A DNA stretch of 64,000 nt from Gammaproteobacteria bacterium (GCA_024235015.1 JACKNG010000003.1:280397-344396); one strand, 5' to 3'. Numbered from the stretch's first letter, positions 1-48,846 are shown. The notes: generated by a model not told the origin, from the letters alone. Numbers and translations are program-made.

Positions 1-392
1 GTTCGCAGGCCGACAGCCAGGTCAGCAGGCCGCCGAAGCAGTAACCGACCACGCCGACCTTGCCGTGCGCGGCGACGGCGTCGATGGCCGCCTGCAGGTC
101 CTTGAGGGTGTCCTCGAGCCGGAGATCCTGGAAGGCGATGCGCAGGCCCTTGTCGAAATCGGCCTGCTCGGTGTAACCGAGTTCGACGTCGGCCTCGACG
201 CGATCGAAGATCTGCGGCGCGATGGCGACGTAACCAGCCTTGGCATAGTCGTCGACCACGGCACGAATGTGCTTGTTGACGCCGAAGATCTCCTGGATGA
301 CGACGACGCCACCCTTGGGCGTGCCGCTCGGCGCGGCCTCGTAGGCGCCGAAGGTGAAGCCGTCAGCCGCGGTCAGTTTGCGCTGTCCCATG
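1..392 (-). CDS. dienelactone hydrolase family protein (carboxymethylenebutenolidase-like), 3' end truncated by window edge
   Basis: Minus-frame translation from ATG at 392: MGQRKLTAADGFTFGAYEAAPSGTPKGGVVVIQEIFGVNKHIRAVVDDYAKAGYVAIAPQIFDR...GYCFGG. This shows the DLH-fold motifs, including the nucleophile elbow region. It is not in the ORF table because it runs off the window. Confidence 0.6.
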
Positions 393-509
393 TGGTCAAG
401 TCTCCGTGGTCGGGTCGGGAGCGCTCGATTGGAACCGAGTGTGCGGCCCAGATCAACCGCCGCCGGCGGGCCCTCATGCCCCGGCAGGGCCGCCGTGACG
501 TGGGGTTCC

Positions 510-545
510 AAAAAACCGGACAACTGTCCTAAAATCGCCCGCACC
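510..545 (+). promoter_or_regulatory. sigma-70-like promoter (TTCCAA-18nt-TAAAAT) with embedded GGACAACTGTCC palindrome upstream of amine dehydrogenase operon
   Basis: TTCCAA at 506-511 and TAAAAT at 530-535, with an 18-nt spacer containing the palindrome GGACA-AC-TGTCC (518-529). This lies about 50 nt upstream of the GTG at 588. Confidence 0.35.
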
Positions 546-587
546 GGGCCGCCGTGCCGGGGCACTCAGACTAGGGAGGCGAGAATC

Positions 588-1739
588 GTGAAGCGGGTAT
601 CTACTTCTATCCTCACCGGGCTGGCGCTGCTGCTCGGTTGCCGTCTCGCCATGGCCGAGCTCCAGCCCGAGACCCTCACCGTCGGCAAGCTGCCGCCGGC
701 GAACCCACACCGCATCTACCTGAGCGACCTCGGCGGCCTCGGCCACGTCGTCGACGGCCGCATCCATCTCGTCGATGGCGACTCCTACAAGTATCTCGGC
801 GCGATCCCGGCGGCCATGTTCGCCCTCACCGCGCTGTCGCCCGATTCCAGCGAGATGTACCTCGCCACCACGTATTACACCAAGCTCAACCGCGGCAAGC
901 GCTTCGACCAGTTCGAGGTCTACGACACCGCCACGCTGAAGCTGAAGTCGGAGATCGAAATCCCGGCCAAGCACGCCCAGGCCCTGCCCTACAAGGGCAC
1001 CATGGTGTCGACTGCCGACGGCCGTTTCGTCATCATCCAGAACGCGACCCCGGCCAGCTCGGTGACGGTGGTCGATCGCAAGGCCGAGAAGTTCGTCACC
1101 GAGATCGAAACCCCCGGCTGCTGGATCATCCTGCCCGCGGCCTCCAACGCGCGTCGCTTCGCCACCCTCTGCGGCGACGGCACCCTGCTTACCGTCACCC
1201 TCGACGACGACGGCCAGGCGGTCAGCCAGCAGCGTTCGGCCAAGCTCTTCGACGCCGAGAAGGACCCGCTGTTCGTGCAGGCCGAGCACATCGGCGACAG
1301 CTACTACTTCGTCTCCTACGAGGGCAACCTGCACCAGATCAACGTCGGCGGCGACACCGCCGTGCTCGAGGACAAGTGGTCGCTGGTCGACGACGCCGAT
1401 CGCGCGGCGAAGTGGAAACCCTCCGGATACCAACTCACCGCCCTGCACGCACCGAGCAAGCGTTTCTACGTCGCCATGCACGACAACGCCTACGACGGCA
1501 GCCACAAGAACCCGGCCAAGGAAATCTGGGTGTTCGACCTCGCCACCAAGCAGCGCATCCAGCGCGCGCCCGGCTCGAACTCCGTCGCCATGGCACTGAG
1601 CAAGGAAGAGAAACCGGTGCTGTTCACCTACGACGGCATGACCGCCGAGTTCGTACGCTACGACACCGTGCCCGAGCTCAAGCCCGGCGCGCGCAGCAAG
1701 CCGGTCGGTGAATTCGCCGGCCTCGTGCAACTGCACTAA
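588..1739 (+). CDS. mauB: TTQ-dependent (methyl/aromatic) amine dehydrogenase heavy chain, beta-propeller
   Basis: GTG start after an AGGGAGG RBS; signal peptide VKRVSTSILTGLALLLGCRLAMA. The ORF 354..1739 translation resembles MADH/AADH large subunits (7-bladed propeller, e.g. YLSDLGGLGHVVDG, DTATLKLKSEIEIP). It is followed by mauE, mauD and mauA homologs. Confidence 0.8.
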   Translation: MKRVSTSILTGLALLLGCRLAMAELQPETLTVGKLPPANPHRIYLSDLGGLGHVVDGRIHLVDGDSYKYLGAIPAAMFALTALSPDSSEMYLATTYYTKLNRGKRFDQFEVYDTATLKLKSEIEIPAKHAQALPYKGTMVSTADGRFVIIQNATPASSVTVVDRKAEKFVTEIETPGCWIILPAASNARRFATLCGDGTLLTVTLDDDGQAVSQQRSAKLFDAEKDPLFVQAEHIGDSYYFVSYEGNLHQINVGGDTAVLEDKWSLVDDADRAAKWKPSGYQLTALHAPSKRFYVAMHDNAYDGSHKNPAKEIWVFDLATKQRIQRAPGSNSVAMALSKEEKPVLFTYDGMTAEFVRYDTVPELKPGARSKPVGEFAGLVQLH

Positions 1740-1748
1740 GCCGCGTCG

Positions 1749-2285
1749 ATGCCGGACATCGTCATCCAGCACGTGGCCGCGGCGACCCTCGCCATCGTGT
1801 TCATGGTCGGCGCGTGGCAGAAGCTGCGCGATCGCATCGGCTTCGAGATCGCGCTGGACAACTACGACCTGCTGCCGGCAGCGCTGGTCAAGCCGGTCGC
1901 CTGGCTGCTGCCCGCCTTCGAGTTCGCCACTGGCCTGGCCCTGGTCTCGCCGTGGCGCACGAACGGCGGCGTGATGGCCCTCCTGCTGCTCGGCTTCGTC
2001 ACCGCCGGCGTCGTCGTCAACCTGCTGCGCGGCCGGACCGACGTCGGCTGCGGCTGCGGCGGCATCGAGGACGAGCAATTGCTGTCGTGGGCACTGGTCG
2101 CGCGCAACGGCGTGCTCGCCCTCGGCGCCTGCGCCACCCTCGGCGCCGGCGTGGCGCGCCCGCTGGCCTGGCTCGATTACGTCACCGTGGTGGGCGCGAC
2201 GCTCAGCGCCTACGCGCTGTACGTGGCGGCCAACCAGCTCATCGCCAACCGGCCGCGCCTGGCGCGCCTGAGGCGTCCGGCATGA
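1749..2285 (+). CDS. mauE: methylamine utilization protein MauE-like membrane protein
   Basis: Polytopic membrane protein located 9 nt after the heavy-chain stop; conserved mau/aau position. Contains the CGCGG motif typical of MauE. Confidence 0.7.
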   Translation: MPDIVIQHVAAATLAIVFMVGAWQKLRDRIGFEIALDNYDLLPAALVKPVAWLLPAFEFATGLALVSPWRTNGGVMALLLLGFVTAGVVVNLLRGRTDVGCGCGGIEDEQLLSWALVARNGVLALGACATLGAGVARPLAWLDYVTVVGATLSAYALYVAANQLIANRPRLARLRRPA

Positions 2286-2872
2286 ACACCGCGCTTGCCA
2301 TCGCCGTCGGCGTGCTGTGGCTCGTGGTCATCGCGCTGGTCGTCGCGGTGTTCGCCCTGGCGCGCCAGATCGGCATCCTCTACGAACGCGTCGCGCCGAT
2401 GGGCGCACTGATGCTGGACGAAGGGCCCAAGGTCGGCGAGCAGGCGCCGCGCTTCACCCTCGCCACGCTCGCCGGCGGCAGCGTCAACCTCGGCCACCCC
2501 TCGCAGCGCGGCGAACTCCTGTTCTTCCTCTCGCCGACCTGCCCGGTGTGCAAGAAGCTCCTACCCGTGCTGCGCTCGATCGCCAAGGCCGAGGCCGACT
2601 GGCTCGACGTGGTGCTGGCCAGCGACGGCGACGAGCCCCGCCAGCGCGCCTTCTACAAGAAGGCCGGCCTGGAAGATTTCCCCTACGTGTTGTCACACGA
2701 CCTCGGCATGGCGTACAAGGTCGGCAAGCTGCCGTACGCCGTGCTGCTCGACGAAAGCGGTCAGGTGCGCGCCAAGGGTTTGATCAATTCGCGCGAGCAG
2801 CTCGAGAGCCTGTTCACGGCCAAGGAGCTCGGCGTCGAATCGATCCAGCAGTACCTGGGCAGCGGGGCGTGA
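2282..2872 (+). CDS. mauD: MauD-like thioredoxin-fold protein (TTQ biogenesis)
   Basis: ATGA overlap with mauE; N-terminal TM anchor then a CPVC thioredoxin motif (LSPTCPVCKKLLP). Typical MauD arrangement. Confidence 0.75.
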   Translation: MNTALAIAVGVLWLVVIALVVAVFALARQIGILYERVAPMGALMLDEGPKVGEQAPRFTLATLAGGSVNLGHPSQRGELLFFLSPTCPVCKKLLPVLRSIAKAEADWLDVVLASDGDEPRQRAFYKKAGLEDFPYVLSHDLGMAYKVGKLPYAVLLDESGQVRAKGLINSREQLESLFTAKELGVESIQQYLGSGA

Positions 2873-2960
2873 CCCGCGCGCAGGGTAGTGGAAGACGCCG
2901 GCGCTCGGCGACAAGAACGGTACAAGGTCTCGGAGACCCGAGGCGCGGGAGACGCGACTT

Positions 2961-3497
2961 ATGAGATGGTTTGACGACTTCTTCGAACGCCAGGCGCGCA
3001 ACGTCGCGCTGAAGACCTCACGCCGCAGCGCGCTGCTGCGCATCGGCCGCGTCATGGTCGGCACGGCCTTCCTGCTGCCGGTGCTGCCCTTCGATCGCCA
3101 GCCGCGTGCCCAGCACGGCGCCATCGACGACGGCAAGCACGACCCGCTCGACCCGGAGCGCTGCGAATACTGGCGCTACTGTTCGCTGGACGGCACGCTG
3201 TGCACCTGCTGCGGTGGCTCCATCACCACCTGCCCGCCGGGCAGCGAGCCATCCTCGGTGACCTGGATCGGCACCTGCCACAATCCCGAGGACGGCAAGG
3301 ACTACCTGGTCAGCTACAACGACTGCTGCGGTGGCGCCAGCTGCGGGCATTGCTTCTGCAACCAGAACGAGGGCGAACGCCCCGGCTACCGCATGGGCAT
3401 CCACAACGACATCAACTGGTGCATGGGCAACGAGAGCAGCGTCTACCACTGCACGGTGTCGGTGGTCCTCGGCGAGTCCGGCGCCAAGGCCGGCTGA
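2961..3497 (+). CDS. mauA: TTQ-dependent amine dehydrogenase light (small) chain with Tat signal
   Basis: Twin-arginine signal (SRRSALLRIGRV). Cys-rich mature domain (CTCCGGS...CCGGASCGHCFC...NWCMG) characteristic of MADH/AADH light chains that carry the TTQ cofactor. Confidence 0.85.
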   Translation: MRWFDDFFERQARNVALKTSRRSALLRIGRVMVGTAFLLPVLPFDRQPRAQHGAIDDGKHDPLDPERCEYWRYCSLDGTLCTCCGGSITTCPPGSEPSSVTWIGTCHNPEDGKDYLVSYNDCCGGASCGHCFCNQNEGERPGYRMGIHNDINWCMGNESSVYHCTVSVVLGESGAKAG

Positions 3498-3514
3498 GGC
3501 CGCGCCCGCTCGCC

Positions 3515-3952
3515 ATGTCGGTTGCCGCGCGCCCGCTCCTCGTCGCGGGCGCGCTGGCGATCCTCCCGCTGGCCGTCTCGGCCCAGCCGCCCGAACACGA
3601 TTTCCTGCAGTTCTGCGTCGGCTGTCACCGCCTCGACGGCAGCGGCAGCGCGCAGAACGGCGTGCCCGACATGCGCGGCGTGGTCGGGCGCTTCCTGCGC
3701 GGGCCGACGGGGCGCGCCTTCGTCGTCCAGGTTGCCGGCGTCGCCCAGGCCCCGCTCGACGATGCCGCGATCGCGGCCCTGCTCAACTGGCTGCTGCCGC
3801 GCATGGATGCGGACGGCCTGCCGGACGATTTCCAACCCTATACCGCGGCCGAGGTCGCCCACCTGCGCGCAACCCGGCCGGGCGACGTCCCGGCCCTGCG
3901 CCAGCGCGCGCTCGACGAGGTTGCCGCGCTCGAGGCGGGCGCGGCCCGTTGA
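3515..3952 (+). CDS. small periplasmic monoheme c-type cytochrome
   Basis: Signal peptide MSVAARPLLVAGALAILPLAVSA and a single CVGCH heme-binding motif. Sits immediately downstream of the light chain, at the position of the cytochrome ORF in aau-type clusters. Confidence 0.65.
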   Translation: MSVAARPLLVAGALAILPLAVSAQPPEHDFLQFCVGCHRLDGSGSAQNGVPDMRGVVGRFLRGPTGRAFVVQVAGVAQAPLDDAAIAALLNWLLPRMDADGLPDDFQPYTAAEVAHLRATRPGDVPALRQRALDEVAALEAGAAR

Positions 3953-4040
3953 CGCCGCCCGCCCGCCTCGCGCACCCTCGGGGGCGGCGACGGTATCGCC
4001 TGCCATCCGCCATCCATCCGTTCACGGGGAGAAAGACCAC

Positions 4041-4916
4041 ATGACCGTCGAGTACATGGCCGCCATCCGCGCGCGCTACGAGAAGCTCGGTTACACGCCC
4101 TACCGCTGGTACGTGGCCGAGGATGCACCGCCCTTCGCGCCGCTGCGCCAGCCACTGGCCGCGAGCCGCCTGGGCCTGTTGTCGACCTCCGGCGCCTACG
4201 CCGTCGGCCAGTGCGCCTACCACTACAAGGACGACGCCGGCTTCCGCGCGATCCCGTCGGACACCGCACCGGAGGACCTCCGTTTCTCGCACATCACCGA
4301 GAACTACCTGGTCGACCCCAAGCAGGACCCGGACTGCATCTTCCCGCTCGGCACCCTGCGCGCGCTGGTCGCCGACGGCGCCGTCGGCGCGCTCGCCGAC
4401 GAGGTCTTCTCCTGCATGGGCGGGGTCTACTCGCAGCGCCGCGTACGCGAGGAAACGGCGCCGGCCCTGCTCGAGGCCTTCCAGGGACAAGGCGTCGACT
4501 GCGCGCTGCTGGTCGCGATGTGACCGGTGTGCCACCAGACCGTGTGTCTGGTCGCCCGTCACCTCGAAGCGCACGGCATTCCCACCCTCGTGCTGGGCTC
4601 GGCGCGCGACATCCTCGTCGCCGGGCGGCCGCCGCGCGCGGCCTTCGTCGACTACCCGCTCGGTCACAGCGCCGGCAAGCCACACGATCGCGCCGACCAG
4701 CGCAGCGTGGTGAGCGGCGCCCTGGCCGGCTTCGCCACCATCGACACGCCCGGCACCCTGATCGACCTGCCCAATGCCTGGGGCGACGACGCCTGGCGCA
4801 GCGAGGCCAGTTCGACCGAGGCCCGCGACACCCGCCAGCCGCGCGACCTCACCCCGCAATGGCAGCGCGCGGGCGACCGCGAGGCCGCCATTGCGAGCGG
4901 TGCCTGGGCACCGTGA
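4041..4916 (+). CDS. PrdB/GrdB-family (glycine/sarcosine/betaine/D-proline reductase protein B-like) selenoprotein candidate; in-frame TGA (Sec) at 4521-4523
   Basis: ATG at 4041 follows GGGGAGAAAG. ORFs 3522..4523 and 4527..4916 are in the same frame, separated by one TGA. TGA readthrough gives ...CALLVAM-U-PVCHQTVCLVARHLEAHGIPTLVLG, matching the PrdB/GrdB active-site region (U-x-x-C-H followed by ...GIPT). Upstream DPDCIFPLGTLRALVADG also resembles PrdB. A hairpin lies 10 nt downstream of the TGA. Confidence 0.55.
4534..4552 (+). promoter_or_regulatory. candidate bacterial SECIS-like stem-loop downstream of in-frame UGA
   Basis: A-CCAGAC-CGUGU-GUCUGG-U: a 7-bp stem with a 5-nt loop containing GU, starting 10 nt after UGA 4521-4523. 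A possible outer GGUG/CACC closing stem spans 4526-4563. Confidence 0.35.
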
Positions 4917-4932
4917 AAGACCCTCGGCGACG

Positions 4933-5799
4933 ATGAACGAGCCGGGCGGCCCGCGCGCCGACGTCCTGCTGTGGGGGGTGATCGCGGCCTGGACCGCGGT
5001 CACCCTGGCCAGCTTCTTCGCCCCGGCCGTGCTGTCACCGAACCACGCGCGCTACGTCAACGTCGCGCTGATGAGCGTGTTCACCCTGCTCCACGGCGCG
5101 CGCCGCTACGGCTGGGCCGGGATCGGCGTCTACTTCGCCATCGCCTGCCTCGTCGCCAACGGCTTCGAAAACCTCTCGATCACCACCGGCCTGCCCTTCG
5201 GCCAGTACCACCACACCGCGGCGATGGGCCCGAAGCTGTTCCAGGTACCGCTCATCATCGGCCCGATCTTCGCCGTCGCCGGCTACCTCGCCTGGGTGGT
5301 GACCGGCATCCTGCTCGGCGCGGTGTTCGGCGCGCCGGAACACGGCCTGGCGGTGGCGCGCTGCGTGCTCGCCGCCGCCGTGACCACCATGTGGGACCTG
5401 TGCGTCGACGCCATCGGCGGCACCGTCAACCGTGACTGGATATGGGCCCACGGCGGCGCCTTCTTCGGCGTGCCGTGGCTGAACTTCGCCGGCTGGCTGC
5501 TGACGATGTGGGTGATCTTCCAGCTCTTCGCCGGCTACGTGACCCGCGTCGGGCAGGTCCGCCCGGTGCCGGTGGCGAGCCCCTACTGGCTGCAACCGGT
5601 GGTGTTCTGGTTGCTGATCGCGCTGCAGTTCCCCCTGCTCGCGTTGATCGTGCCCGAAGCCGCGATCACCGACGCCGCCGGCGCAACCTGGTCGATGCAC
5701 GGCCTGTTCACCAGCATGGCCGTGGTCAGCGTGTTCACCATGGGCTTCACCGGCCTGCTCGCCTGGGTTCTGCTGGCGCGCGCCCGCGCCGGGCATTGA
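4933..5799 (+). CDS. polytopic membrane protein, carotenoid-biosynthesis-protein (DUF422/PF04240)-like
   Basis: ATG at 4933 inside ORF 4774..5799. Multiple TM helices; sequence features recall the PF04240 family. Family assignment is tentative. Confidence 0.45.
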   Translation: MNEPGGPRADVLLWGVIAAWTAVTLASFFAPAVLSPNHARYVNVALMSVFTLLHGARRYGWAGIGVYFAIACLVANGFENLSITTGLPFGQYHHTAAMGPKLFQVPLIIGPIFAVAGYLAWVVTGILLGAVFGAPEHGLAVARCVLAAAVTTMWDLCVDAIGGTVNRDWIWAHGGAFFGVPWLNFAGWLLTMWVIFQLFAGYVTRVGQVRPVPVASPYWLQPVVFWLLIALQFPLLALIVPEAAITDAAGATWSMHGLFTSMAVVSVFTMGFTGLLAWVLLARARAGH

Positions 5800-5817
5800 A
5801 CGCCCGCACGCCCGCCT

Positions 5818-6297
5818 TCACAGGCTCATCGTGCCCTGCCCCGCCCAGCCGCGCGCCAGGGTGGTCATGGCGCGGATGTGCACCACTTCGCGCGCGATCA
5901 GCCACTGCCCGCCCTGCCGGCGAAAACCCCAGTCGTAGGTGCCCCAGCCCAGCACCGAGTCGGCGCCCTCTTCCTGCGTCACGTGCCAGTACATGAAGGC
6001 GCTGGCCGTGTCGCCGGTGACCGTGACGACTTCGTTGGCGTAGTAGCGGCGCGGGTTGTCGAAGCGCCGCCAGTAGTTCTCGAAAAAGCGCATCACGGCG
6101 TCGATGCCGCGTACCTCGACGCTCCAGGCCGGCACCTCGATCACGGCGTCGTCGGTGAACAACGGCCACAGCACGTGGGGGTGCTTCTCGTCGACGCCGA
6201 CGGCGTACTGCGACAAGACGGTGCGGATGTCGCGATCGGCGCGCAGCGCCGCGACTTCGTGTTCGAGCGCCGCGAGGCGCGTTTCCAGCGTGGTCAT
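5818..6297 (-). CDS. SnoaL-like / NTF2-fold protein
   Basis: MTTLETRLAALEHEVAALRADRDIRTVLSQYAVGVDEKH..., typical of SnoaL_4/ketosteroid-isomerase-like small proteins. Divergent from the monooxygenase gene. Confidence 0.5.
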   Translation of the reverse strand: MTTLETRLAALEHEVAALRADRDIRTVLSQYAVGVDEKHPHVLWPLFTDDAVIEVPAWSVEVRGIDAVMRFFENYWRRFDNPRRYYANEVVTVTGDTASAFMYWHVTQEEGADSVLGWGTYDWGFRRQGGQWLIAREVVHIRAMTTLARGWAGQGTMSL

Positions 6298-6494
6298 GGT
6301 TTCTCCCTCCTCGGGCGCCGCCCGCCGCGCCTGCCCGGGCGGGCCCGGTGGCGCGGCGTCCATCATCGATCAAGGCCCGGCGGCCGTCACCCGCGGCGCC
6401 GCCGGCCAGCGCCCCGCACGGGGGCCTGGAACTTGTACGTACATCTGTTAATCTCAGGTTTTCCCATTCCAGTTGCGGCCGGAGGCCGACCCGC

Positions 6495-8102
6495 ATGCCC
6501 ACGACCTACGATGCCATCGTCATCGGCGCCGGAATCTCCGGCTTGTACTCGACCTACCGCCTGCGCGAACGCGGCCTGAGTGTGCACGGCTTCGAAGCCG
6601 GCAGCGACGTCGGCGGCACCTGGTACTGGAACCGCTACCCCGGCTGCCGTTTCGATTCCGAGAGTTACACCTACCAGTACTCGTTCTCCAAGGAACTGTT
6701 CGAGGAATGGCAGTGGAGCGAACACTTCGCCAGCCAGCCCGAGATCGAACGTTATGTCCATTACGTCGCCGACAAGTTCGATCTCAAGCGGCACTACGAC
6801 TTCGACGCGCGGGTCAAGACCGTGCATTTCGACGACGCCGACCGCATGTGGACCGTGACCGCCGAGGACGGGCGCAGTGCGCGGGCGCGCTTCATCGTCG
6901 CCGGCACCGGCCTGCTGTCGGCGTTCCAGTTGCCCGACTACCCCGGCGTGCACGATTTCGCCGGCCTCACCGTGCACACCGCGCGCTGGCCGAAAGAAGG
7001 CATCGACGTCAGCGGCAAGCGCGTCGGCATCATCGGCAGCGGCCCGACCGCGGTGCAGGTGATCCAGTCCATCGCCCCCGAGGTCGGCCACCTGACGGTG
7101 TTCCAGCGCACCGCCAACTGGTGCACCCCGCTGCGCAACCGTCCCATCACGGCCGAGGAGCAGCGCGACCTCACCGCCCACGCCGCCGAGATCATCGATC
7201 ACTGCAAGCAGACCTTCGCCGGCTTCATGCACGACATGGACCCGCGCGCCAGCACCGAGGTCGCCTCGAAGGAAGAGCGCTGGGCCAAGTACCAGGATCT
7301 CTACGAACGCGGCGGCTTCGCCCTGTGGTTCGCCAACTACAACGACCTCTTCACCAACCGCGCCTTCGCCGAGGAGGTCAGCGAGTTCCTCGCCGAGAAG
7401 ATCCGCCAGCGGGTCAAGGACCCGGCCACGGCCGAGAAGCTGATCCCGAAGAACCATCCCTACGGGACCAAGCGCCCGCCGGGCGAGAAGGACTTCTATG
7501 AGGCCTTCAACCGCGACAACGTCGACCTCGTCGACCTGCGCGCGACCCCCATCTCGCGCATCACCGCGGCCGGGGTAGAGACCAGCGAACAACTCTACGA
7601 ACTCGATATCCTGATCTACGCCACCGGCTTCCAGAGCCTGACCGGCGAGCTGCTGCGCATCGACATCCGCGGCGAGGGCGGCCTCGCCCTGGCCGACAAG
7701 TGGGCCGACGGGCCGCGCACCAACCTCGGCGTGCAGTTCGCCGGCTTTCCCAACTTCTTCGCCACCATGGGGCCCCACCACCCGGCGACGTTCTGCAACA
7801 TCACGCGCTGCGCGGAAACCACGGTCGACTGGATCGTCGACTGCATCGACTACATCCGCGCACACGGCTACACCTCGATCCAGCCCACGCCGGAAGCGGA
7901 GGAAGCCTGGACCCGGCACTGCTACGACTCGTCCAAGGGGCTGATCATCGACGAGATGCGTGACTCCTGGTTCTTCGGCAACAACAACCCGGAGAACAAG
8001 GGCGTGCCGCGCTTCCTGCTGTGGGCCGGCAGCGTCAGCGAGTTCCACCAGGTCTACCGCGACGTCGCCGCCGCCGGTTACCGCGGCTTCGAGTTCCGCT
8101 GA
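6495..8102 (+). CDS. Baeyer-Villiger monooxygenase (type I flavin-containing, cyclohexanone monooxygenase family)
   Basis: GGAGG RBS at 6481. Two Rossmann motifs (IVIGAGISGL, GIIGSGPTAVQ) and the BVMO fingerprint FxGxxxHxxxW region (FAGLTVHTARWP). Confidence 0.85.
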   Translation: MPTTYDAIVIGAGISGLYSTYRLRERGLSVHGFEAGSDVGGTWYWNRYPGCRFDSESYTYQYSFSKELFEEWQWSEHFASQPEIERYVHYVADKFDLKRHYDFDARVKTVHFDDADRMWTVTAEDGRSARARFIVAGTGLLSAFQLPDYPGVHDFAGLTVHTARWPKEGIDVSGKRVGIIGSGPTAVQVIQSIAPEVGHLTVFQRTANWCTPLRNRPITAEEQRDLTAHAAEIIDHCKQTFAGFMHDMDPRASTEVASKEERWAKYQDLYERGGFALWFANYNDLFTNRAFAEEVSEFLAEKIRQRVKDPATAEKLIPKNHPYGTKRPPGEKDFYEAFNRDNVDLVDLRATPISRITAAGVETSEQLYELDILIYATGFQSLTGELLRIDIRGEGGLALADKWADGPRTNLGVQFAGFPNFFATMGPHHPATFCNITRCAETTVDWIVDCIDYIRAHGYTSIQPTPEAEEAWTRHCYDSSKGLIIDEMRDSWFFGNNNPENKGVPRFLLWAGSVSEFHQVYRDVAAAGYRGFEFR

Positions 8103-8140
8103 GCCGCGCGCCGCTCAGCGCCGCGGCCGCACGACCGGCT

Positions 8141-9007
8141 TCAGTCGATACTGCTGGCGACGAACTCGCACAGGGCGTCGGTCAGCGGGCCGTCGGCCTC
8201 GCCCAGGCTCTCGATCACGTTGAAATGATGGCAATCGCCGAGTACCTGGTACTCGGCGCCCAGCCCGACCGCCTGGCAGGCGGCGACGTAGTCGCGCGAC
8301 TGGCGATGGAACTCCTCGGATTCGCCGCCGCCGACCGCCGCGATCAGCGGCGCGGCGGTGCGCGGCAGCTGCAGCTGCGGGCTCTCGCGCAATACCGTGT
8401 CACCGTCGAGCTGGATCATCGGCTGCAGCCACGAGTAGCGCAGCGGACGCAGGTCGAACAGGCCCGAGATCGCGTATCCCCCCTTGACGAGGTCCGGCGG
8501 CAGGCCGTACTCGCCGAGCCAGTCGGTGGCGAGCAGGCGCGCGACCTGGTGACCACCGGCGGAATGCCCGCTGACCACGATACGTTCGGGGTCGCCGCCG
8601 AAGTCTTGGACGTGGCGGTAGAGCCAGGCCAGCGCGGCGCGGCTCTGGCGGGTGATCTCACCGATCGAGACGGCCGGACACAGCGCGTAGTTGGTGACAA
8701 CGACGGTGTAGCCGCGCGCCACCGGCCCGGCGGCGACAAAGCTGAACTCCTTGGCGCTCAGGCGCCGCCAGTAACCGCCGTGGACGAACACCACCACCGG
8801 CGCATCCGGCCGCGCGGCGGGAAAGATGTCGAGTGTCTCGGCCAGGGTCGGACCGAAGGCGAGGTCGAGTTCGCAGGCGAGGGCGCTGCGCGTCCGCGCG
8901 CTGGCCTCGACGAAGAACTCCAGCCAGCGCCGCGCATCGGGCACCTGGCGCTCGATGTTGTACTGGGCGTCGATGTCGTCCTGGCTGGCGAAGTCGCGGT
9001 AGAGCAC
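8141..9007 (-). CDS. alpha/beta-hydrolase fold esterase/lipase
   Basis: HGGYW oxyanion motif (VFVHGGYWRR) and a GHSAGG nucleophile elbow. Convergent with the BVMO gene. Confidence 0.7.
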   Translation of the reverse strand: MLYRDFASQDDIDAQYNIERQVPDARRWLEFFVEASARTRSALACELDLAFGPTLAETLDIFPAARPDAPVVVFVHGGYWRRLSAKEFSFVAAGPVARGYTVVVTNYALCPAVSIGEITRQSRAALAWLYRHVQDFGGDPERIVVSGHSAGGHQVARLLATDWLGEYGLPPDLVKGGYAISGLFDLRPLRYSWLQPMIQLDGDTVLRESPQLQLPRTAAPLIAAVGGGESEEFHRQSRDYVAACQAVGLGAEYQVLGDCHHFNVIESLGEADGPLTDALCEFVASSID

Positions 9008-9092
9008 GCTGTCCTCCCGGGTTCGTGGCCCGACTAGACACCACCGCGAGCGCGTCCGTCAATCGGCGTCGCGCAGGCACCAGCCGGCGCCT

Positions 9093-11897
9093 TCACCCGG
9101 TATTGCGCAGGCCCGCGGCGATGCCGTTGATCGAGATGTGGATGCCGCGCTGCAGTCGTTCGCGCGCCGCCGCCGGCTCGCGGCCGTCGCGGTAACGCCG
9201 CAGCAGTTCGACCTGGAGGTGGTTGAGCGGGTCGAGGTAGGGAAAGCGATGAGCGATGGAACGCGCCAGGGCGGGGTTGGCCGCGAGGCGTTCCTCGGCG
9301 CCGCTGATCAGGCTGACCATGGCGTCGGTGCGCGTCCACTCGGCGCGGATGCGCTCGAAGATGCGCCGCGCGGCGCGGCGGTCCGGCACCAGTTCGACGT
9401 AACGCGCGGCGATGCCGAGGTCGGTCTTGGCTAGCACCATGTCGAGGTTGGAGACCAGCGCGCGGAAGAACGGCCAGCGCCGGTGCATGCGCTGCAGGCA
9501 CTCGACCCGCTCGGCGCGCTCGCCGGCGTCCAGCCAGGCCTCTACCGCGCTGCCGAAACCGTACCAGCCCGGCAACGCCACGCGGCACTGGCCCCAGGAG
9601 AAGCTCCAGGGGATCGCCCGCAGGTCCTCGATGGCGAAGGTGGCCTTGCGCGAGGCCGGCCGCGAGCCGATGTTGAGCGCCGCGATCTCGCTGATCGGCG
9701 TGGCCGCGGCAAAGTAGTCGACGAAGGCCGGGTCGTCGTAGACCAGGCGGCGGTAGGCCGCCATGCTCGCCGCGCTGATGGCGTCGGCGGCCTCGAGGAA
9801 GCGTTGCGGCGGGCGCTTGGTCGGGTGCAGCACGGTCGCCTCCAGGGTCGCCGCGACGAGCGTCTCGAGGTTGCGCCGGCCGATCTCGGGATGGGCGTAC
9901 TTGGCGCCGATCACTTCGCCCTGCTCGGTCAGCCGGATCTGGCCGTTCACGGTGCCGGGTGGCTGGGCCAGGATGGCCTGGTAGCTCGGCCCGCCGCCGC
10001 GCCCGACGGTGCCGCCGCGGCCGTGGAACAGGCGCAGGCGCAGGCGGTGGGAGCGCTCCAGCGGCTCGAACAACTCGACCAGGGCGACCTCGGCGCGGTA
10101 GAGCTCCCAGTTGCTGGTGAACACGCCGCCGTCCTTGTTGCTGTCGCTGTAGCCGAGCATGATTTCCTGCTCCGCGCCGCTGCGCCGGACCATGTCGAGC
10201 ACCCCGGGCAGGGCATAGAACTCGCCCATGATCTCGGCCGCGCGACGCAGGTCGGCGATGGTCTCGAACAGCGGCACCACGACCAGGTCGGCGACGGCGT
10301 CGCGGTCCAGGGTGCCGCGCACCAGCCCGGCTTCCTTCTGCAACACCAGCAGTTCGAGCAGGTCGCTGACGGCCTCGGTGTGGCTGATGATCGAATGGCG
10401 GATGGCGCCCGGCCCGTAGGCCGCGCGCGCCGCGGCAGCGGCCTCGAAGATCTCGAGTTCGCCGCTGGTCAACTCCGAGTAGCGCGCGCCGCGCACGCGC
10501 AGCGGCCGCGCATCGTTCAGCAGCGCCAGCAAGCAGGCCCGTCGGGCGTCCTCGTCGAGCGCCGGGTAATCGGCCTCGATGCGCGCCACGCGCAGCAGCT
10601 CGGCGACCACCGCCTCGTGCTTGTCCGAACTCTGGCGCAGGTCGAGGGTGGCGAGGTGGAAGCCGAACACCTGCGCGGCGCGCTTGAGCGGCGCGAGGCG
10701 CGGCGCGATCAGGGCCTCGGCATGGTGGGAGCGCAGCGAGGCGGCGATGACGTCGAGATCGGCGATGAATTCCTGCGCCGTCGCGTAGGGGTCCTGCGGC
10801 GCGACGGCGTGGCGCAGGGCCTCGGTGCCGGTGAGTTCGTGCAGGGTGGCGGCAAGCCGCGCGTAGATACCGACCAGGGCGCGGCGGTAGGGCTCGTCCT
10901 GGCGGTGCGCGCTGCGGTCGGGCGAGCGCGCGGCGAGCTTGCGCATGGCCGGGGTCACCGGCGAGAACAGGTTCGACATCGACAGCTCACTGCCGAGTTC
11001 GTGCACCTCGACCAGGTAGTGGCGCAGCGCGACCTCGGCCTGGCGCGCCAGGGCGCGGCGCAGGGTGGCCGCGGTGACGTTGGGATTGCCGTCGCGATCG
11101 CCGCCGATCCAGGCGCCCATGCGCAGGAAGCAGCCGATGTCGTGCCCGGGCAGGGCGCGCTCGACCTCGCGGTAGAGCCGCGGCACCTCGCGCAGGAAGG
11201 TCGCGTGGTAGTAGGACAGCGCGTTCTCGATTTCGTCGGCCACGGCGAGCTTGGCCGTGCGCAGCATGCGGGTCTGCCACAGCTGGGTGATGCGGGCACG
11301 GATGAGTGCCTCGTTGTCGTCGCGCTCGCGCGCGGCGACGAGGTGATCGCGGGCTTCGATGAGCCCGGCGATGGCGCGCTCGGCATCGAGGATGCTCTTG
11401 CGCTGGACCTCGGTCGGGTGGGCGGTGAGGACGGGCGAGATGTAGGCCTCGCGCAGCAGCGCGGCGATGTCGCCGGCGCGTTCGCCGCTGCGCTGCAGGC
11501 GCTCGAAGGCCAGGGCGAGCGAACCGTCCTGCAGCCGCCCGCCGCGCTCGTGGACGTGGCGACGGCGCACGTGGTGGCGATCCTCGGCGATGTTGGCGAG
11601 GTGCGAGAAATAGCTGAAGGCGCGGATCACGCTGACCGTCTGGTCGACCGAGAGATTCTTGAGCAGGCGATCGAGGGTCCGCCCGGCGCGCTTGTCCGCC
11701 TTCAGGCGATAGGCCACCGAGAGCTGGCGTACGCGCTCGATCAATTCGAACGCGGCACGCCCTTCCTGCTCGCGGATGACGTCGCCGAGGATGCGCCCGA
11801 GCAGGCGGATGTCCTCGACCAGCGGGCGGTTCTTGGCCGCGGCATCGTGATCGCCACCGGCGCCGCGTGCCTGCCCTCCACTTCGTCCCCGTGCCAT
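9093..11897 (-). CDS. ppc: phosphoenolpyruvate carboxylase
   Basis: About 930-aa protein ending ...[10 protein letters not shown], with conserved [18 protein letters not shown] and [12 protein letters not shown] motifs. Start chosen at the ATG 6 nt after GGAGG (11897); the ORF extends spuriously to 12017. Confidence 0.9.
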
Positions 11898-12037
11898 CGT
11901 CATCCTCCCGCCGTTACCGCTCGAGTGCGGACTATGCTGCACTGCGCAATGCGACGTTTCAACCGTGCGCGTCCGCATCGCGGCGGGAAACGCATAGAAT
12001 CCCGCGCGTTCAACCAACGACGGGGAGGTATCGACAC

Positions 12038-12799
12038 ATGGCTCTGCTCGACCAACGCGTGGTGCTGGTCACCGGCGGCAGCACCGGCATCGGCCGCGCC
12101 ACCGCGCGCATCCTGGCCAGCGAGGGCGCGACGGTGATCATCGCCGACGTGCAGGACGACGAGGGCGCGAACACGGTCGCGGCGATCACGCAGTCCGGCG
12201 GCCACGCCGAGTACCTGCACGTCGACGTCGGTGACTTCGCCGCGGTCGAGGCCGCGGTGGCGACCCTCGTCGAGCGTCACGGTGCCCTGCACGGCGCCTT
12301 CAACAACGCCGGTATCGAGGGCCCCACCGCCAAGATCCTCGACCTCGCCCCGGCCGAGTGGGAACGCGTCATCCGCGTGAATCTCACCGGCGTCTACCAC
12401 TGCATGAAAGCCGAGATCGCGCAGATGGTGAAACAGGACGGCGGCGGCAGCATCGTCAGCACGGCCTCCGCGGCCGGCCTCATCGGCATCCCCGGCGCGG
12501 CCGGCTACAACTCGGCCAAGCACGGCGTGGTCGGCCTGACCAAGACCGTCGCGCTCGAGTACGCGGCGCGCAACATCCGCGTCAACGCGGTGTGCCCGGG
12601 CTTCATCGAGACGCCCATGCTCGGCCGCGTGACCGAGGCCAGCGCCAAGATCCGCGAACAGATGATCGGCGCGACGCCGATGAAACGGGTCGCCCAGCCG
12701 GAGGAAATCGGCGACGCCGTGGCCTGGCTGCTGTCGGCCAGGTCGAGCTACGTCACCGGTGTCGCCCTGCCGGTCGACGGCGGCTGGGTCGCCCAGTAA
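12038..12799 (+). CDS. short-chain dehydrogenase/reductase (SDR) family oxidoreductase
   Basis: [20 protein letters not shown] Rossmann motif, NNAG, and the catalytic S...YNSAKHG (YxxxK) motif. Confidence 0.85.
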
Positions 12800-12809
12800 C
12801 GCGGACTTC

Positions 12810-13718
12810 TCACCGGCGTTCGTCGCGCCCTCGCCGCGCGGCGCGCGCCTCCCAGCCCATCACGCCGATCCCGCTCGCCGCGATGAGGACCATGCCGGCC
12901 GCGCTGAGGCCATCCGGCACCTGGCCGAAGAACCACCAGCCGGTCAGGCCCGACCACCACAGCTGCAGGTAGCTGAGCGGGGCGAGGAAGGACGCACCGG
13001 CCCAGAAGAAGGCGCGCAGCAGCAGCCACTGGCCGAGCGCGCCGAGCACACCGAGGGCCAGCAGCGTGGCCACCTGGCCGCTGCCGAGTGCATCCGGCCA
13101 GCCGCCCCAGGCATCCTGCCAGGGCAGCAGCACGGCCGACAGCAGCGCCGCGCTGAGCGCCGAGATGAACAGCGTCGTCATTGCCTCGTCGGCCACGGCG
13201 AGACGCCGGGTGAGCAACTGGAAGGCGACGTTGCAGGCGATCGCGAGCACGCCGAAGGCGATGCCGAGCGGCGCCAGCGTGCCGCCCGGGCGCACCACCA
13301 CCAGCATGCCGAGGAAACCGGCCACGGCGCCGACCCAACGCACGCGGCCGACGCTCTCGCCGAGCAGCGGCCCGGCCAGCAGCATCACCACCAGCGGGCC
13401 GACGAAGATAATGGCCGTGGCCTCGGCCTGCGGCAGGTAACGCAGCGAGGACACGAAGGTGAGACTGAAGGCGCCGAGCACGAGCCCGCGCGCGACCTGC
13501 TCGAACGGCCGCCGCGTACGCCACAACCGCCCGCGCAGGCGCGGTCCCAGCACGGCCAGCATCAACACCACCTGGGTGCCGTGGCGCACCGCGGCGATCA
13601 GCGGGATGCCCATGTCGGCCGCCAGCCACTTGCTGCTGGCATCGAGCACGGCGAGGAAAACCTGCGCACCGAGCAGGAAGGCGAGCGCGCGCAACGGGCT
13701 GAACGAGGGGGTGGACAC
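12810..13718 (-). CDS. DMT-superfamily (EamA/RhaT-like) transporter
   Basis: About 10 TM helices with two EamA-like halves. Confidence 0.65.
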   Translation of the reverse strand: MSTPSFSPLRALAFLLGAQVFLAVLDASSKWLAADMGIPLIAAVRHGTQVVLMLAVLGPRLRGRLWRTRRPFEQVARGLVLGAFSLTFVSSLRYLPQAEATAIIFVGPLVVMLLAGPLLGESVGRVRWVGAVAGFLGMLVVVRPGGTLAPLGIAFGVLAIACNVAFQLLTRRLAVADEAMTTLFISALSAALLSAVLLPWQDAWGGWPDALGSGQVATLLALGVLGALGQWLLLRAFFWAGASFLAPLSYLQLWWSGLTGWWFFGQVPDGLSAAGMVLIAASGIGVMGWEARAARRGRDERR

Positions 13719-18526: not shown

Positions 18527-20656
18527 TCAGGACGCCTTCGCCACTTCGACCAGGTTGTCGGAGAAGGTCGGCGCATGCCCCATGTCGACGAACTCCGCGC
18601 TCGACACCACGTTGACCGTGCCGCGGTTGAGCTGGCGCCAGTAGCCGAGGGTGGCGACGACGATGCCTGGGTTGACGTCGTCGGAGATCTCGGCGACCGC
18701 TTCGAAGGCGCCGCGCTCGTTGAACACCCGCACGGCCTCGCCGTCGCCGATGCCACGACGCGCCGCGTCGACGGCGTTGATGAGCAGGAACTGCTCGCCC
18801 TGGCCCTTCAGCTTGCCGGCCATGTTGGCGTAGCAGGAGTTGAGAAAGCCGTGACTCTTGGGCGAGACGATGTTGAGAGGAAAGCGCGCGGCGAGCGCCG
18901 GGTTGCTGGCCGGGCTCTCGCGCGGCGGCACGTAATCGGGCACGGCGTCGAGCGGCTCGCCGCCCTGCATGTCGGTGTACATCTGGCGGAACGGCGGCGC
19001 GACGAAATTGCCGCCGGCGGCGATGCTCGACTCGAATTCACACTTGCCGGACGGCGTGGGAAAGTTGCCTTCGCGATGCGGCGCGCGATCGTCCGCCGTG
19101 CCGAGCGCGAGGCGGACGAAACCCCGCTCGCGCAGGCTGGCGAGGTCGAAACCGGCGCAGGCCGGTGCCGACCAGTCGACGAACCGTTCCAGGCACTCGG
19201 CGTCCGACCATTGGAACTCGGGCTCGTCGTAGCCCATGCGCGCGGCCAGGCGGCGGAAGATCTCGCGGTTGGACAACACCTCGCCCGGCGGCTCGGCGCA
19301 GGCCGCGTTCCAGGTCAGGTAGTTGTGGCCCCAGGACAGGATGATGTCCTCCATCTCCGCACCCATGGCCGCGGGCAGGAGGATGTCGGCGTAGCGCGCG
19401 ACGTCGGTGACGAAATGCTCGGCGACGACGAGAAAGAGATCCTCGCGTTCGAGTCCGCGCACGATCTTGTCGCCCTCGGGCGCCTGGGTGACCGGGTTCG
19501 AGTTCCAGCACATCAGCGACAGGATCGGCGGGTCGAGCGGGATCTCGCCGGTGAGCAGGCGGCCGAGTTGGAGGTTGTTGACCGCGCGCGTGCCGGGCGG
19601 GATCCAGTCCGGCCGGCAGATGGCGTCGAAGTCGTAGGGATGCTCCCACACCGGCATGGCGAGGATGCCGCCGCCGACGTGGCGCCAGGCGCCGGTCAGG
19701 GCCGGCAGGCAGCACACCGCGCGCACCGTCTGGCCGCCACCGTGATGGCGCTCCAGGGCGACGCCGATGCGGATGGCGGCGGGCTGGGTGCCGGCGTACT
19801 CGTGGGCGAGGCGGCGGATGTCGGCGGCCGGCACCCCGGTGATGCCCTCGGCCCACTCCGGCGTGCGCGCCTGCGCCCGCGCGGCCAGCGCGTCGTAGCC
19901 CTGCGTGTAGCGCTCGACGTAGTCGCGATCGACCAGGCCGTCCGCGATCAGGACGTGGATCAGGGCCATGGCCAGCGCGCCGTCGGTACCCGGCCGCGGC
20001 GCGATGTGCCAGTCGGCCTCGCGCGCCGTGCGCGAACGGTAGGCATCGATGACGACGACCTTCGCTCCCGCCTTCTGCGCATCCTTGACGACGTGCCAGT
20101 GGTGCAGGTTGGTGCTGACGCTGTTGCAGGCCCAGATGACGATGAACTTCGCGTGGCGGAAGGACTCGGGGTCCACACCGCCACTCGGGCCGTAGGTCAT
20201 CAGCCAGGCGGTCGCCGCGCCCTCGCCGCAGAAGGTGCGTTCCATCACCGTCGCGCCCATGCGGTTGAAGAAGGCGTCGCCGCCGTTCAGCCCGTGCACC
20301 AGGCCCTGGTGGCCGAGGTAGCTGTAAGGCGCGATGGCCTGCGGCCCGTGCGCGGCGATGATCGCCTGCCAGCGCGCGGCGATGGTGTCGAGCGCCTCGT
20401 CCCACGAGATGCGCGCGAACTCGGCGCTGCCCTTGGGCCCGACCCGCTTGTGCGGGTAGAGCAGGCGCTCGGGATGGTAGTGCCGCTTCTCGTAGTCGCG
20501 CAGCTTGACGCACAGGCCGCCGCGGGTGAGCGGGTGGTCCGGGTTGCCGCGCACGCCGACCAGGCGGCCGTCCTCGACCTCGAACTGCATCGAGCAGGTG
20601 TCGGGACAATCGTGCGGGCAGCCGCCGTGGTGGATGGTGCGCGTGCTCGTCGTCAT
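18527..20656 (-). CDS. molybdopterin-dependent oxidoreductase (MopB superfamily) with N-terminal Cys cluster
   Basis: N-terminal CPHDCPDTC...C 4Fe-4S-type motif followed by molybdopterin dinucleotide-binding domains. Standalone, with no partner subunits in the window; substrate is unknown. Confidence 0.75.
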   Translation of the reverse strand: MTTSTRTIHHGGCPHDCPDTCSMQFEVEDGRLVGVRGNPDHPLTRGGLCVKLRDYEKRHYHPERLLYPHKRVGPKGSAEFARISWDEALDTIAARWQAIIAAHGPQAIAPYSYLGHQGLVHGLNGGDAFFNRMGATVMERTFCGEGAATAWLMTYGPSGGVDPESFRHAKFIVIWACNSVSTNLHHWHVVKDAQKAGAKVVVIDAYRSRTAREADWHIAPRPGTDGALAMALIHVLIADGLVDRDYVERYTQGYDALAARAQARTPEWAEGITGVPAADIRRLAHEYAGTQPAAIRIGVALERHHGGGQTVRAVCCLPALTGAWRHVGGGILAMPVWEHPYDFDAICRPDWIPPGTRAVNNLQLGRLLTGEIPLDPPILSLMCWNSNPVTQAPEGDKIVRGLEREDLFLVVAEHFVTDVARYADILLPAAMGAEMEDIILSWGHNYLTWNAACAEPPGEVLSNREIFRRLAARMGYDEPEFQWSDAECLERFVDWSAPACAGFDLASLRERGFVRLALGTADDRAPHREGNFPTPSGKCEFESSIAAGGNFVAPPFRQMYTDMQGGEPLDAVPDYVPPRESPASNPALAARFPLNIVSPKSHGFLNSCYANMAGKLKGQGEQFLLINAVDAARRGIGDGEAVRVFNERGAFEAVAEISDDVNPGIVVATLGYWRQLNRGTVNVVSSAEFVDMGHAPTFSDNLVEVAKAS

Positions 20657-20873
20657 AGCCTGATCTCCCCGGTAGTGAGCGGCGCGCGCGCCTGCACTGT
20701 CGCGGTGCAGTTGCGGCGGCGGCGCGCGGCCACCTCATGCTAGCAGTCCGCATCGCCACGCGCACTGAACCACCCTACGGCGGCGCACGTAGCAGTAACA
20801 GTGGCAAACTTCGGCGAGAAGACGGCTTGGCCACGTCGCCGTTGGCCCCGGCATCGCTGCAGGATGTACGCAC

Positions 20874-21953
20874 GTGAACCAGACGGACTTGAGCTTACTC
20901 GACCAGATGCGCATCACGGACCTCGAGTTCGAACGGCGCAAGGCGTACATCGGTTTCGATGATGCCGACGTCGCCGCCCTGGTCGAAGTGCGCCGGATCG
21001 TGCTCGAAGTCTGCGACGATCTCGTCGAGCGCTTCTACGCCGCGCAGACCCGCGTGCCGGAGATCGCGCTGCTCATCGGCGATGCCGACACCCTGCGCCG
21101 CCTGGCCGCGGCCATGGGGCAATACGTGGTCGAACTGTTCAGCGGCCTCTACGATCTCGAGTACGTCAGCGACCGCCTGCGCATCGGTCTCGTGCACAAG
21201 CGTATCGGCGTCGATCCCACGCTCTACCTGTCGGCCATGCACCAGCTGCGCCGCCTGCTCGGCGAGACCATCGACGACGGCGTGGACGACCCTGCCCTGC
21301 GCCACGCCGCGCAGGTGGCGCTGGACAAGCTCTTCACGCTCGATACCACCCTGGTATTCGAGACCTACGTGCGCATGCTGGTGGCCGAGGTCGAGGAGTC
21401 GCGCAACCGCGCCGAGCGCTACGCGCAGGAACTCGAGGAGAAGGTGCGCGAACGCACGCGGCAGCTCGAGGAACTGGCGCACACCGACGCCCTCACCGGC
21501 TTGCTCAACATGCGCCACATCGATCACGCCCTGACCCGCGCGCTGCGCGGGGCCCAGCGCCGCGCCGAACCCGTGACCGTGATCTTCATCGACATCGACG
21601 ATTTCAAGCAGATCAACGACCACGAGGGCCATCCGTTTGGTGACGAGGTGCTGCGCAGCGTCGCCACGATCCTGCAACGGGTGCTGCGCGCCGACGACAA
21701 CGCGTTCCGCTACGGCGGCGACGAGTTCTGCCTGATCCTGCCGAACTGCGACGAACAGCAGGCCATGGCCCAGATCGTCACGCGCATCGAAGCCGAGCTC
21801 GAAACCGTGAACGACGCTGTCAGCCTCAGCTTCGGCGTGGCCCAGACCGGCCCCGCGCGTTACGTCAGCGGTGACGCCCTGCTGGCCGAAGCCGACCGCC
21901 TCATGTACGCCGCCAAGCGCGCGCACAAGCGGGACGGCGACGCGACGCCCTGA
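20874..21953 (+). CDS. globin-coupled sensor diguanylate cyclase (protoglobin-like N-terminus + GGDEF)
   Basis: N-terminal sensor-globin features (proximal-His region LVHKRIGVDPTLYL). C-terminal GGDEF domain with an intact RYGGDEF active site and an RxxD-like I-site. GTG at 20874; alternative ATG at 20907. Confidence 0.75.
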   Translation: MNQTDLSLLDQMRITDLEFERRKAYIGFDDADVAALVEVRRIVLEVCDDLVERFYAAQTRVPEIALLIGDADTLRRLAAAMGQYVVELFSGLYDLEYVSDRLRIGLVHKRIGVDPTLYLSAMHQLRRLLGETIDDGVDDPALRHAAQVALDKLFTLDTTLVFETYVRMLVAEVEESRNRAERYAQELEEKVRERTRQLEELAHTDALTGLLNMRHIDHALTRALRGAQRRAEPVTVIFIDIDDFKQINDHEGHPFGDEVLRSVATILQRVLRADDNAFRYGGDEFCLILPNCDEQQAMAQIVTRIEAELETVNDAVSLSFGVAQTGPARYVSGDALLAEADRLMYAAKRAHKRDGDATP

Positions 21954-29911: not shown

Positions 29912-31611
<1,700 letters not shown>

Positions 31612-31615
<4 letters not shown>

Positions 31616-31929
31616 GGCGTGCCCTCCAGCGGCCCCATGACCGTGCCACGGAAACCGTACACGCGGCGCAGCCCGGCGTAGGGCACCAGCGTGACGGTGC
31701 GGGTCTGGCCGGGCTCGAAACGCACCGCCGTGCCGGCCGGGATGTCGAGGCGCTGGCCGCGCGCCGCGGCGCGATCGAATTCCAGCGCCGGGTTGGTCTC
31801 GGCGAAGTGGTAGTGCGAACCGACCTGCACGGGGCGGTCGCCGGTGTTGGCAACGGCCAGCTCGATCACCGGGCGGCCGGCGTTGAGTTCGATCTCGCCG
31901 TCGTCGACGAAGAGTTCTCCTGGGATCAT
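31612..31929 (-). CDS. ureB: urease beta subunit
   Basis: 105 aa, [19 protein letters not shown].... Confidence 0.9.
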
Positions 31930-31954
31930 GGCGGGGTCCTCGCGCGCCTGCGCT

Positions 31955-48746: not shown

Positions 48747-48812
48747 CGATAGTCCTCCACTAACGGTCCGCAACGGTTGTGGCCGCAGGCCGCGGCCGTC
48801 GCCGTGCTGCAT

Positions 48813-48829: not shown

Positions 48830-48846
48830 GGCGGGTTCGTGAATCG

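Follow-up and report, generated by a model that had tools for sequence, protein, structure and literature searches.

Which enzyme does an amine dehydrogenase gene cluster encode when it has both subunits of a tryptophan tryptophylquinone (TTQ) enzyme and neither mauF nor mauG, and how might its cofactor be completed? This question is raised by positions 588-3952 of a 64-kb stretch of DNA (hereafter the window) from a Gammaproteobacteria bacterium (GCA_024235015.1, JACKNG010000003.1:280397-344396). An earlier note, made from the sequence alone, had read these positions as an aau-like cluster in which the genes B, E, D and A are followed by a gene for a monoheme cytochrome c. Our analysis indicates that the cluster is very probably an aromatic amine dehydrogenase (AADH)-type (aau) TTQ amine dehydrogenase operon, carried by an uncultured high-GC gammaproteobacterium. 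TTQ maturation without a linked MauG is an old question.

A contiguous five-gene cluster

Because the window has a G+C content of ~70%, reading frames were chosen by third-position GC together with family matches. The cluster consists of five genes lying head to tail on the + strand, with spacings of -4 to +88 nt:

588..1739, + strand: aauB-type heavy (alpha) subunit of a TTQ amine dehydrogenase, 383 aa (PF06433, E 9e-40)
1749..2285, + strand: MauE/AauE-type membrane accessory protein, 178 aa (PF07291, E 1e-25)
2282..2872, + strand: MauD/AauD-type membrane-anchored thioredoxin-like protein, 196 aa (TIGR02661)
2961..3497, + strand: aauA-type light (beta) subunit precursor, 178 aa (PF02975, E 3e-53)
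3515..3952, + strand: orf-2-type periplasmic monoheme c-type cytochrome, 145 aa (CVGCH motif, weak PF00034 match)

The open reading frames (ORFs) for the heavy chain, MauE, MauD, the light chain and the cytochrome are all intact and have a high third-position GC, and the contiguous series of heavy chain, MauE, MauD, light chain and small CxxCH cytochrome was recovered exactly where the earlier note had placed it. A GGGAGG ribosome-binding site lies 8 nt ahead of the GTG start of the heavy chain at 588, and the start of mauD overlaps the stop of mauE by 4 nt. The MauD protein passes the TIGR02661 model with 206.8 bits (cut-off 188.6) and carries a CPVC (CxxC) motif in its translation.

Both subunits group with aromatic amine dehydrogenase

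The heavy chain begins with a Sec signal peptide (..AMA/E). Against structures in the PDB it scored 280.6 bits with the alpha subunit of Alcaligenes faecalis AADH, versus 109.9 bits with methylamine dehydrogenase (MADH), and its identity is 38% to AauB (AAUB_ALCFA) and 23-27% to MauB. The equivalog model for the MADH heavy chain, TIGR02658, is failed by a wide span (155.7 bits, cut-off 454.45).

The light chain was described in the earlier note as Cys-rich with a leader of the twin-arginine translocation (Tat) type, and this description holds: the precursor has 14 Cys residues and a long leader with an SRR twin-arginine motif, which is kept throughout the light-chain family. Its alignment to the mature AADH beta chain is ungapped, with 63% identity. 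Both TTQ-forming residues, Trp102 (codon at 3264) and Trp153 (codon at 3417), are present, as are the catalytic Asp121, Thr165, Asp77 and 14 of the 14 Cys of AADH beta. These residues are numbered along the window precursor; the usual AADH residue numbers are reproduced by the offset in the PDB entry. The pocket departs slightly from that of AADH, with Tyr in place of Phe169 and Ile in place of Val158. The best PDB match of the light chain is AADH at 179 bits, compared with 132-169 bits for MADH, and the MADH light-chain equivalog model TIGR02659 is narrowly failed (183.3 bits, cut-off 196.85). A quinohemoprotein (cysteine tryptophylquinone) amine dehydrogenase was ruled out, as the subunits belong to PF06433 and PF02975 and contain the Trp-Trp pair.

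Neighbour-joining trees of 26 heavy and 26 light chains (200 bootstraps) place the window in a clade of B-E-D-A(+cytochrome) clusters with 100% bootstrap support, together with A. faecalis, a Pseudomonas aeruginosa plasmid, Burkholderia and Novosphingobium. The mauFBEDA(C)JG clusters of Paracoccus denitrificans, Methylobacterium and Indioceanicola fall outside this clade. The comparison against MauA/B and AauA/B proposed in the earlier note therefore assigns both subunits to the AADH-type clade, separated from MADH by 100% bootstrap, and neither the trees nor tblastn revealed subunits of MADH type with an amicyanin gene nearby. Inside the B-E-D-A clade the window groups in a separate subclade (68% and 92% support). 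Enzymes of the AADH kind are characterised by oxidation of aralkylamines (phenylethylamine, tyramine, tryptamine). Rather than methylamine, the window enzyme probably uses a larger, aralkyl-type primary amine; because this subclade is distinct and heavy-chain identity to AauB is no more than 38%, an 'aromatic amine' substrate is best regarded as a proposal from sequence.

The closest named relative of this arrangement is the aau locus of A. faecalis (L088, CP171816.1), the species in which this type of operon was originally reported; it shares the B-E-D-A order followed by a homologous monoheme cytochrome. All five counterparts stand in the same order at 38-63% identity, which bears out the aau-like architecture claimed earlier: 38% for AauB, 38% for AauE, 63% for AauD, 54% for AauA (63% over the mature domain) and 38% for orf-2. 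In full, the A. faecalis locus reads aldehyde dehydrogenase, Phenol_MetA_deg, aauB, aauE, aauD, aauA, CAGCH protein, AraC, a gene of no assigned family and URO-D. The aau layout in this species is reportedly orf-1, aauBEDA, orf-2, orf-3, orf-4 and hemE, which corresponds to this series, and aauBEDA with orf-2 is said to have been expressed heterologously. Homologues of mauF, mauG, mauJ, mauM, mauN and amicyanin are likewise missing near A. faecalis aau (mauL was not among the queries). The two loci differ in their surroundings. Upstream, A. faecalis has genes for an aldehyde dehydrogenase and a Phenol_MetA_deg channel (orf-1), and downstream AraC, orf-4 and hemE, none of which accompanies the window cluster; in their stead, the latter is flanked by a divergently oriented dienelactone hydrolase gene upstream and a PrdB-like selenoprotein gene downstream.

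The likeness to the mau cluster of P. denitrificans (mauR, mauFBEDA, amicyanin, mauJ, mauG, mauM/N) is more limited. The order B, E, D, A is common to both, and the P. denitrificans light chain shares the TTQ Trp pair and the SRR leader with that of the window. However, the window heavy chain is only about 24-26% identical to its P. denitrificans counterpart, the cytochrome occupies the place of amicyanin, and MauF, MauJ, MauG and MauM/N are lacking.

A widespread architecture without mauG

The protein collection contains more than 865 relatives of the heavy chain, for the most part from uncultured Gamma- and Betaproteobacteria, and a genome scan yielded 80 species-level loci with 48-90% identity. 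The order B-E-D-A is retained in every sufficiently long locus and was also seen on annotated plasmids of P. aeruginosa and Novosphingobium. An orf-2-type cytochrome directly follows aauA in 59 of the 72 informative loci; a different class I cytochrome takes this slot in 3 of the 72 and the slot is empty in 10. No mauG was found inside the operon in any of the 80 species-level loci. The window cluster is thus an ordinary member of a widespread and previously described architecture, and the puzzle of the missing MauG therefore concerns the whole family and not the window alone.

Outside the subclade of the window, DUF1329 and DUF1302 genes directly follow aauBEDA(-cytochrome) in 43 loci of the other large subclade (among L028-L086; e.g. 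L072, 13236-16579). These outer-membrane-associated proteins may serve in substrate uptake, as a module comparable to orf-1 of A. faecalis. In the window itself, a DUF1302/DUF1329 pair in divergent orientation lies 45 kb away from the cluster (49047-51993); its relatedness to those genes was undetectable at E 1e-10.

The search for a linked MauG

Searches by tblastn with P. denitrificans proteins (from locus L089) found no match for MauF, MauG, MauJ, amicyanin, MauM or MauN in the 64-kb window; mauL was not searched. Among ORFs of at least 80 codons in all frames of the 64 kb, the sole CxxCH motif other than that of the cytochrome is a CRPCH at 24874, whose ORF is overlapped on the opposite strand by a longer gene for an AMP-binding enzyme.

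As the cluster lies close to the left end of the window, contigs with an identical light chain were fetched. One of these, from a gammaproteobacterial metagenome-assembled genome (L001, GCA_020444845.1), is 99.77% identical to window positions 1-13497 and adds 7 kb upstream. The added segment encodes a dienelactone hydrolase, an acyl-CoA dehydrogenase, a short-chain dehydrogenase/reductase (SDR), a nitroreductase, a methyltransferase, a major facilitator superfamily transporter and a further SDR, and a motif scan and tblastn detected in these 7 kb no CxxCH motif and no homologue of mauF, mauG, mauJ, mauM, mauN or amicyanin. The absence of mauF and mauG reported in the earlier note thus extends across the window and the 7 kb upstream in L001, with neither gene directly outside the window on that side, and the same tblastn searches agree with it on the lack of amicyanin, mauM and mauN in both.

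MauG-family genes do occur at some distance from related clusters. P. denitrificans MauG gave tblastn matches 6-8 kb upstream of the cluster in eight loci of the marine subclade (L020-L022, L024-L027 and L071). In L024, positions 1975-3120 encode a di-heme protein 44% identical to P. denitrificans MauG, in which Tyr294 is kept and Trp93 is replaced by Tyr. This gene lies directly 3' of a 271-aa gene, with a 4-nt overlap; the product of the latter looks like a glutathione S-transferase by eye and has no Pfam or NCBIfam match. Furthermore, Burkholderia replicons with B-E-D-A clusters carry a MauG-family di-heme gene more than 1 Mb distant, which makes an unlinked maturation factor plausible.

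The failure of the di-heme ORFs of L022, L024 and L027 to pass TIGR03791 was considered as proof that they are not MauG, and was dropped. The genuine P. denitrificans MauG (L089, 12153-13316) also fails this model, at 96.8 bits against a cut-off of 443.85, and scores higher with the MbnH model. Since the characterised MauG fails it, TIGR03791 is unusable for excluding MauG function.

The orf-2-type cytochrome

The cytochrome has a signal peptide (..VSA/Q) and a single CVGCH motif at 3614-3628, with a PF00034 match of E 1e-4. It shares 38% identity (E 7e-28) with A. faecalis orf-2, a protein of 140 aa with a CAGCH motif. The family comprises 1028 representatives at 50% clustering, and TTQ dehydrogenase genes adjoin the cytochrome gene on all four of the contigs that were looked up for these representatives. 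Sampled relatives include tandem forms of two to three domains, and one in which neither Met nor His follows the heme motif.

An AlphaFold2 model of the family from 77 members has a mean predicted local distance difference test score of 91. Its best fold match in the PDB is Thermus cytochrome c552, with a template modelling (TM) score of 0.58-0.63, followed by the cytochrome subunits of membrane dehydrogenases. The CxxCH motif and the class I fold, by which a class I cytochrome is recognised, are both present. By sequence, too, the best match is Thermus thermophilus c552 (1C52; E 2e-5, 29% identity). Relative to c552, the cytochrome has two deletions in the HMMER alignment, which remove ~18 residues including the c552 Met69 loop; Met69 is the heme ligand of c552. 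The c552 residues flanking the deleted loop align to a conserved VPG motif of the cytochrome family. The only invariant residues among 77 representatives are C34, G36, C37, H38, P51 and R129, and in 11 of the 77 Met is entirely missing after the heme motif.

Proposed mechanism and rival explanations

By analogy with the literature on MADH and AADH, MauE and MauD would support export of the light chain and formation of its disulfides, and the periplasmic alpha2beta2 enzyme would convert a primary amine to an aldehyde and ammonium. Electrons would then pass to a periplasmic carrier, the orf-2-type cytochrome c, either directly or via a cupredoxin; no cupredoxin was seen among the annotated ORFs of the window. 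We infer that the cytochrome is the electron carrier of the operon because of its fold, the tandem forms, its replaceability in related loci and the precedent of a cytochrome-reducing MADH in Methylophilus. TTQ would most likely be completed by an unlinked MauG-family di-heme enzyme.

Several points weigh against this picture. With 38% identity to AauB and a subclade of its own, the window enzyme may differ in substrate and redox partner. The characterised acceptor of A. faecalis AADH is azurin, not a cytochrome. No conserved Met, His, Lys or Tyr follows the heme motif among the 77 cytochrome representatives, and the apparent lack of a conserved sixth ligand is atypical for a simple electron carrier. 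As for the di-heme enzyme, the search for MauG reached across the window and the 7 kb upstream in L001, not the rest of the genome; the MauG-like protein of L024 lacks an equivalent of Trp199, and an equally similar homologue from Azospirillum adjoins imelysin-type genes, not TTQ genes.

Could the cytochrome itself be the heme catalyst that completes TTQ, or takes part in doing so, and functionally replace MauG? This would explain the ~80 genomes that have B-E-D-A-cytochrome and no linked MauG. The family accompanies mauG-less B-E-D-A clusters and lay beside TTQ genes in all four cases sampled of the 1028; the deleted Met loop, with no alternative ligand conserved, fits an open five-coordinate heme; and with azurin as the acceptor of A. 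faecalis AADH, orf-2 is left without an assigned role. However, the cytochrome is missing from 10 of the 72 informative loci and replaced by an unrelated class I cytochrome in 3, MauG chemistry requires two hemes and a bis-Fe(IV) state where the orf-2 cytochrome has one heme, and the fold matches are to electron-transfer cytochromes. Profile comparison to MauG gave 1.9% probability and nothing beyond generic c-type features, and the distribution complementary to MauG is confounded, as amicyanin is likewise restricted to mau clusters. Taken together, we consider a catalytic role unlikely. In a weaker variant, the orf-2 cytochromes would be dedicated electron acceptors with unusual ligation.

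The remaining alternatives concern the identity and the integrity of the cluster. Automatic annotations label its relatives 'methylamine dehydrogenase', and the light chain, at 183.3 bits, is just below the TIGR02659 cut-off of 196.85, as might be expected of an MADH cluster whose mauF, mauG and amicyanin genes lie elsewhere. Nevertheless, the heavy chain reaches only 155.7 bits against a cut-off of 454 and is 38% identical to AauB versus 23-27% to MauB, the split from the MADH clusters has 100% bootstrap, and the cytochrome is homologous to A. faecalis orf-2, all of which makes an MADH very improbable. That mauG and mauF were not found within ~71 kb could also mean that the cluster is a decaying remnant, inactive since its maturation genes were lost. 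Against this stand five intact ORFs with high third-position GC, the retained catalytic and TTQ residues, the conservation of the mauG-less architecture in 80 genomes at 48-90% identity, and the same architecture at the locus of the crystallised A. faecalis AADH; decay is hardly credible here. An AADH-type operon with a cytochrome electron carrier and an unlinked di-heme maturation enzyme is therefore the reading we prefer.

Flanking genes and a PrdB-like selenoprotein

The cluster is bordered by the following features:

1..391, - strand: 5' part of a dienelactone-hydrolase-family gene, divergent (PF01738, E 2e-22; limits from L001)
392..587, 196 nt, no strand: divergent intergenic region, presumed promoter (from sequence context)
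4041..4916, + strand: PrdB-like selenoprotein gene, probably co-transcribed (in-frame TGA for selenocysteine at 4521-4523)
4534..4552, + strand: hairpin resembling a selenocysteine insertion sequence (SECIS), ACCAGAC-CGUGU-GUCUGGU, 13 nt after the TGA
4933..5799, + strand: CruF/Caroten_synth-like membrane protein, the last same-strand gene (PF04240, E 1e-23)

No sigma-70 consensus was found in 392..587, and a promoter and terminator scan of positions 1-9200 gave no signal above shuffled expectation.

All 15 syntenic orthologues retain the in-frame TGA of the PrdB-like gene, as part of an M-U-P-V-C motif. The SECIS-like hairpin is likewise present in most of them, with compensatory synonymous changes (e.g. 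AUCAAAC/GUUUGAU in L021). An Rfam scan of the region matched neither SECIS nor any other family at the hairpin. Because the TGA is conserved and the hairpin covaries, the PrdB-like gene is predicted to be a real selenoprotein gene. Its product scored 122.5 bits with TIGR04483, below the cut-off of 300, and the annotated flanks showed no PrdA partner. A UxxC 'proline reductase PrdB' family is known as an abundant family of marine selenoproteins (Zhang and Gladyshev, 2008; PMC2398784). The window gene shares with that family its relatedness to PF07355/TIGR04483, the U-x-x-C motif and a SECIS-like hairpin. It differs from PrdB itself in its sub-cut-off equivalog score, and is accordingly called PrdB-like, not PrdB.

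Of the 80 related loci, 17 have a dienelactone hydrolase homologue upstream of the heavy-chain gene and 15 have the PrdB-like gene downstream of the cluster; both neighbours are confined to the subclade of the window (L007-L027, L036 and L071), which includes marine single-cell genomes. The order in this subclade is divergent dienelactone hydrolase, aauB-E-D-A-cytochrome and PrdB-like gene, with heavy chains that are 55-90% identical. The earlier note had identified both flanking genes correctly and had called them unusual neighbours; the latter does not hold, since they are conserved partners within the subclade. This synteny suggests a functional link between the cluster and its flanking genes. 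We know of no prior report of synteny between a PrdB-like gene and a TTQ dehydrogenase operon. The CruF-like gene is a weakly conserved neighbour, found downstream in only 2 of the 80 related loci.

Further downstream, a SnoaL-like gene (5818-6297) is followed by a Baeyer-Villiger-type flavin monooxygenase gene (6495-8102), which adjoins a gene for an alpha/beta-hydrolase esterase (8141-9007). A monooxygenase with an esterase is a typical pairing for conversion of a ketone to an ester and then to an acid. These two genes are kept next to the cluster only in its closest relatives.

Other features of the window

A protoglobin-GGDEF fusion, which corresponds to a globin-coupled diguanylate cyclase, is encoded at 20799-21953 (+ strand) and is adjoined by a molybdopterin oxidoreductase gene (18527-20734). 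Positions ~28000-48850 form a nitrogen-scavenging region, with genes for urease subunits, a CobW/UreG-type accessory gene, two sets of urea/branched-chain-type ATP-binding cassette transporter genes (Peripla_BP_5 plus permeases) and a formamidase/acetamidase gene (47520-48848). The only Rfam match is to the Helicobacter 5' ureB small RNA, at 31180-31466 (+ strand; 105 bits, E 1e-26). It runs antisense to the urease alpha gene (29912-31954, - strand) and most likely reflects conserved urease coding sequence and not a real small RNA.

Significance

For annotation, our results mean that this cluster should be named an AADH-type amine dehydrogenase operon and not a methylamine dehydrogenase. The mauG-less architecture is no peculiarity of Alcaligenes; it is the rule in a large clade of Alpha-, Beta- and Gammaproteobacteria, marine single-cell genomes included. 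This sharpens the question of how TTQ is completed in these organisms, for which the candidates are di-heme enzymes of the MauG family with unlinked genes and the cytochrome that is specific to the cluster and has no conserved Met ligand. Finally, the pairing with the PrdB-like gene provides a genomic context for an abundant marine selenoprotein family of unknown function.

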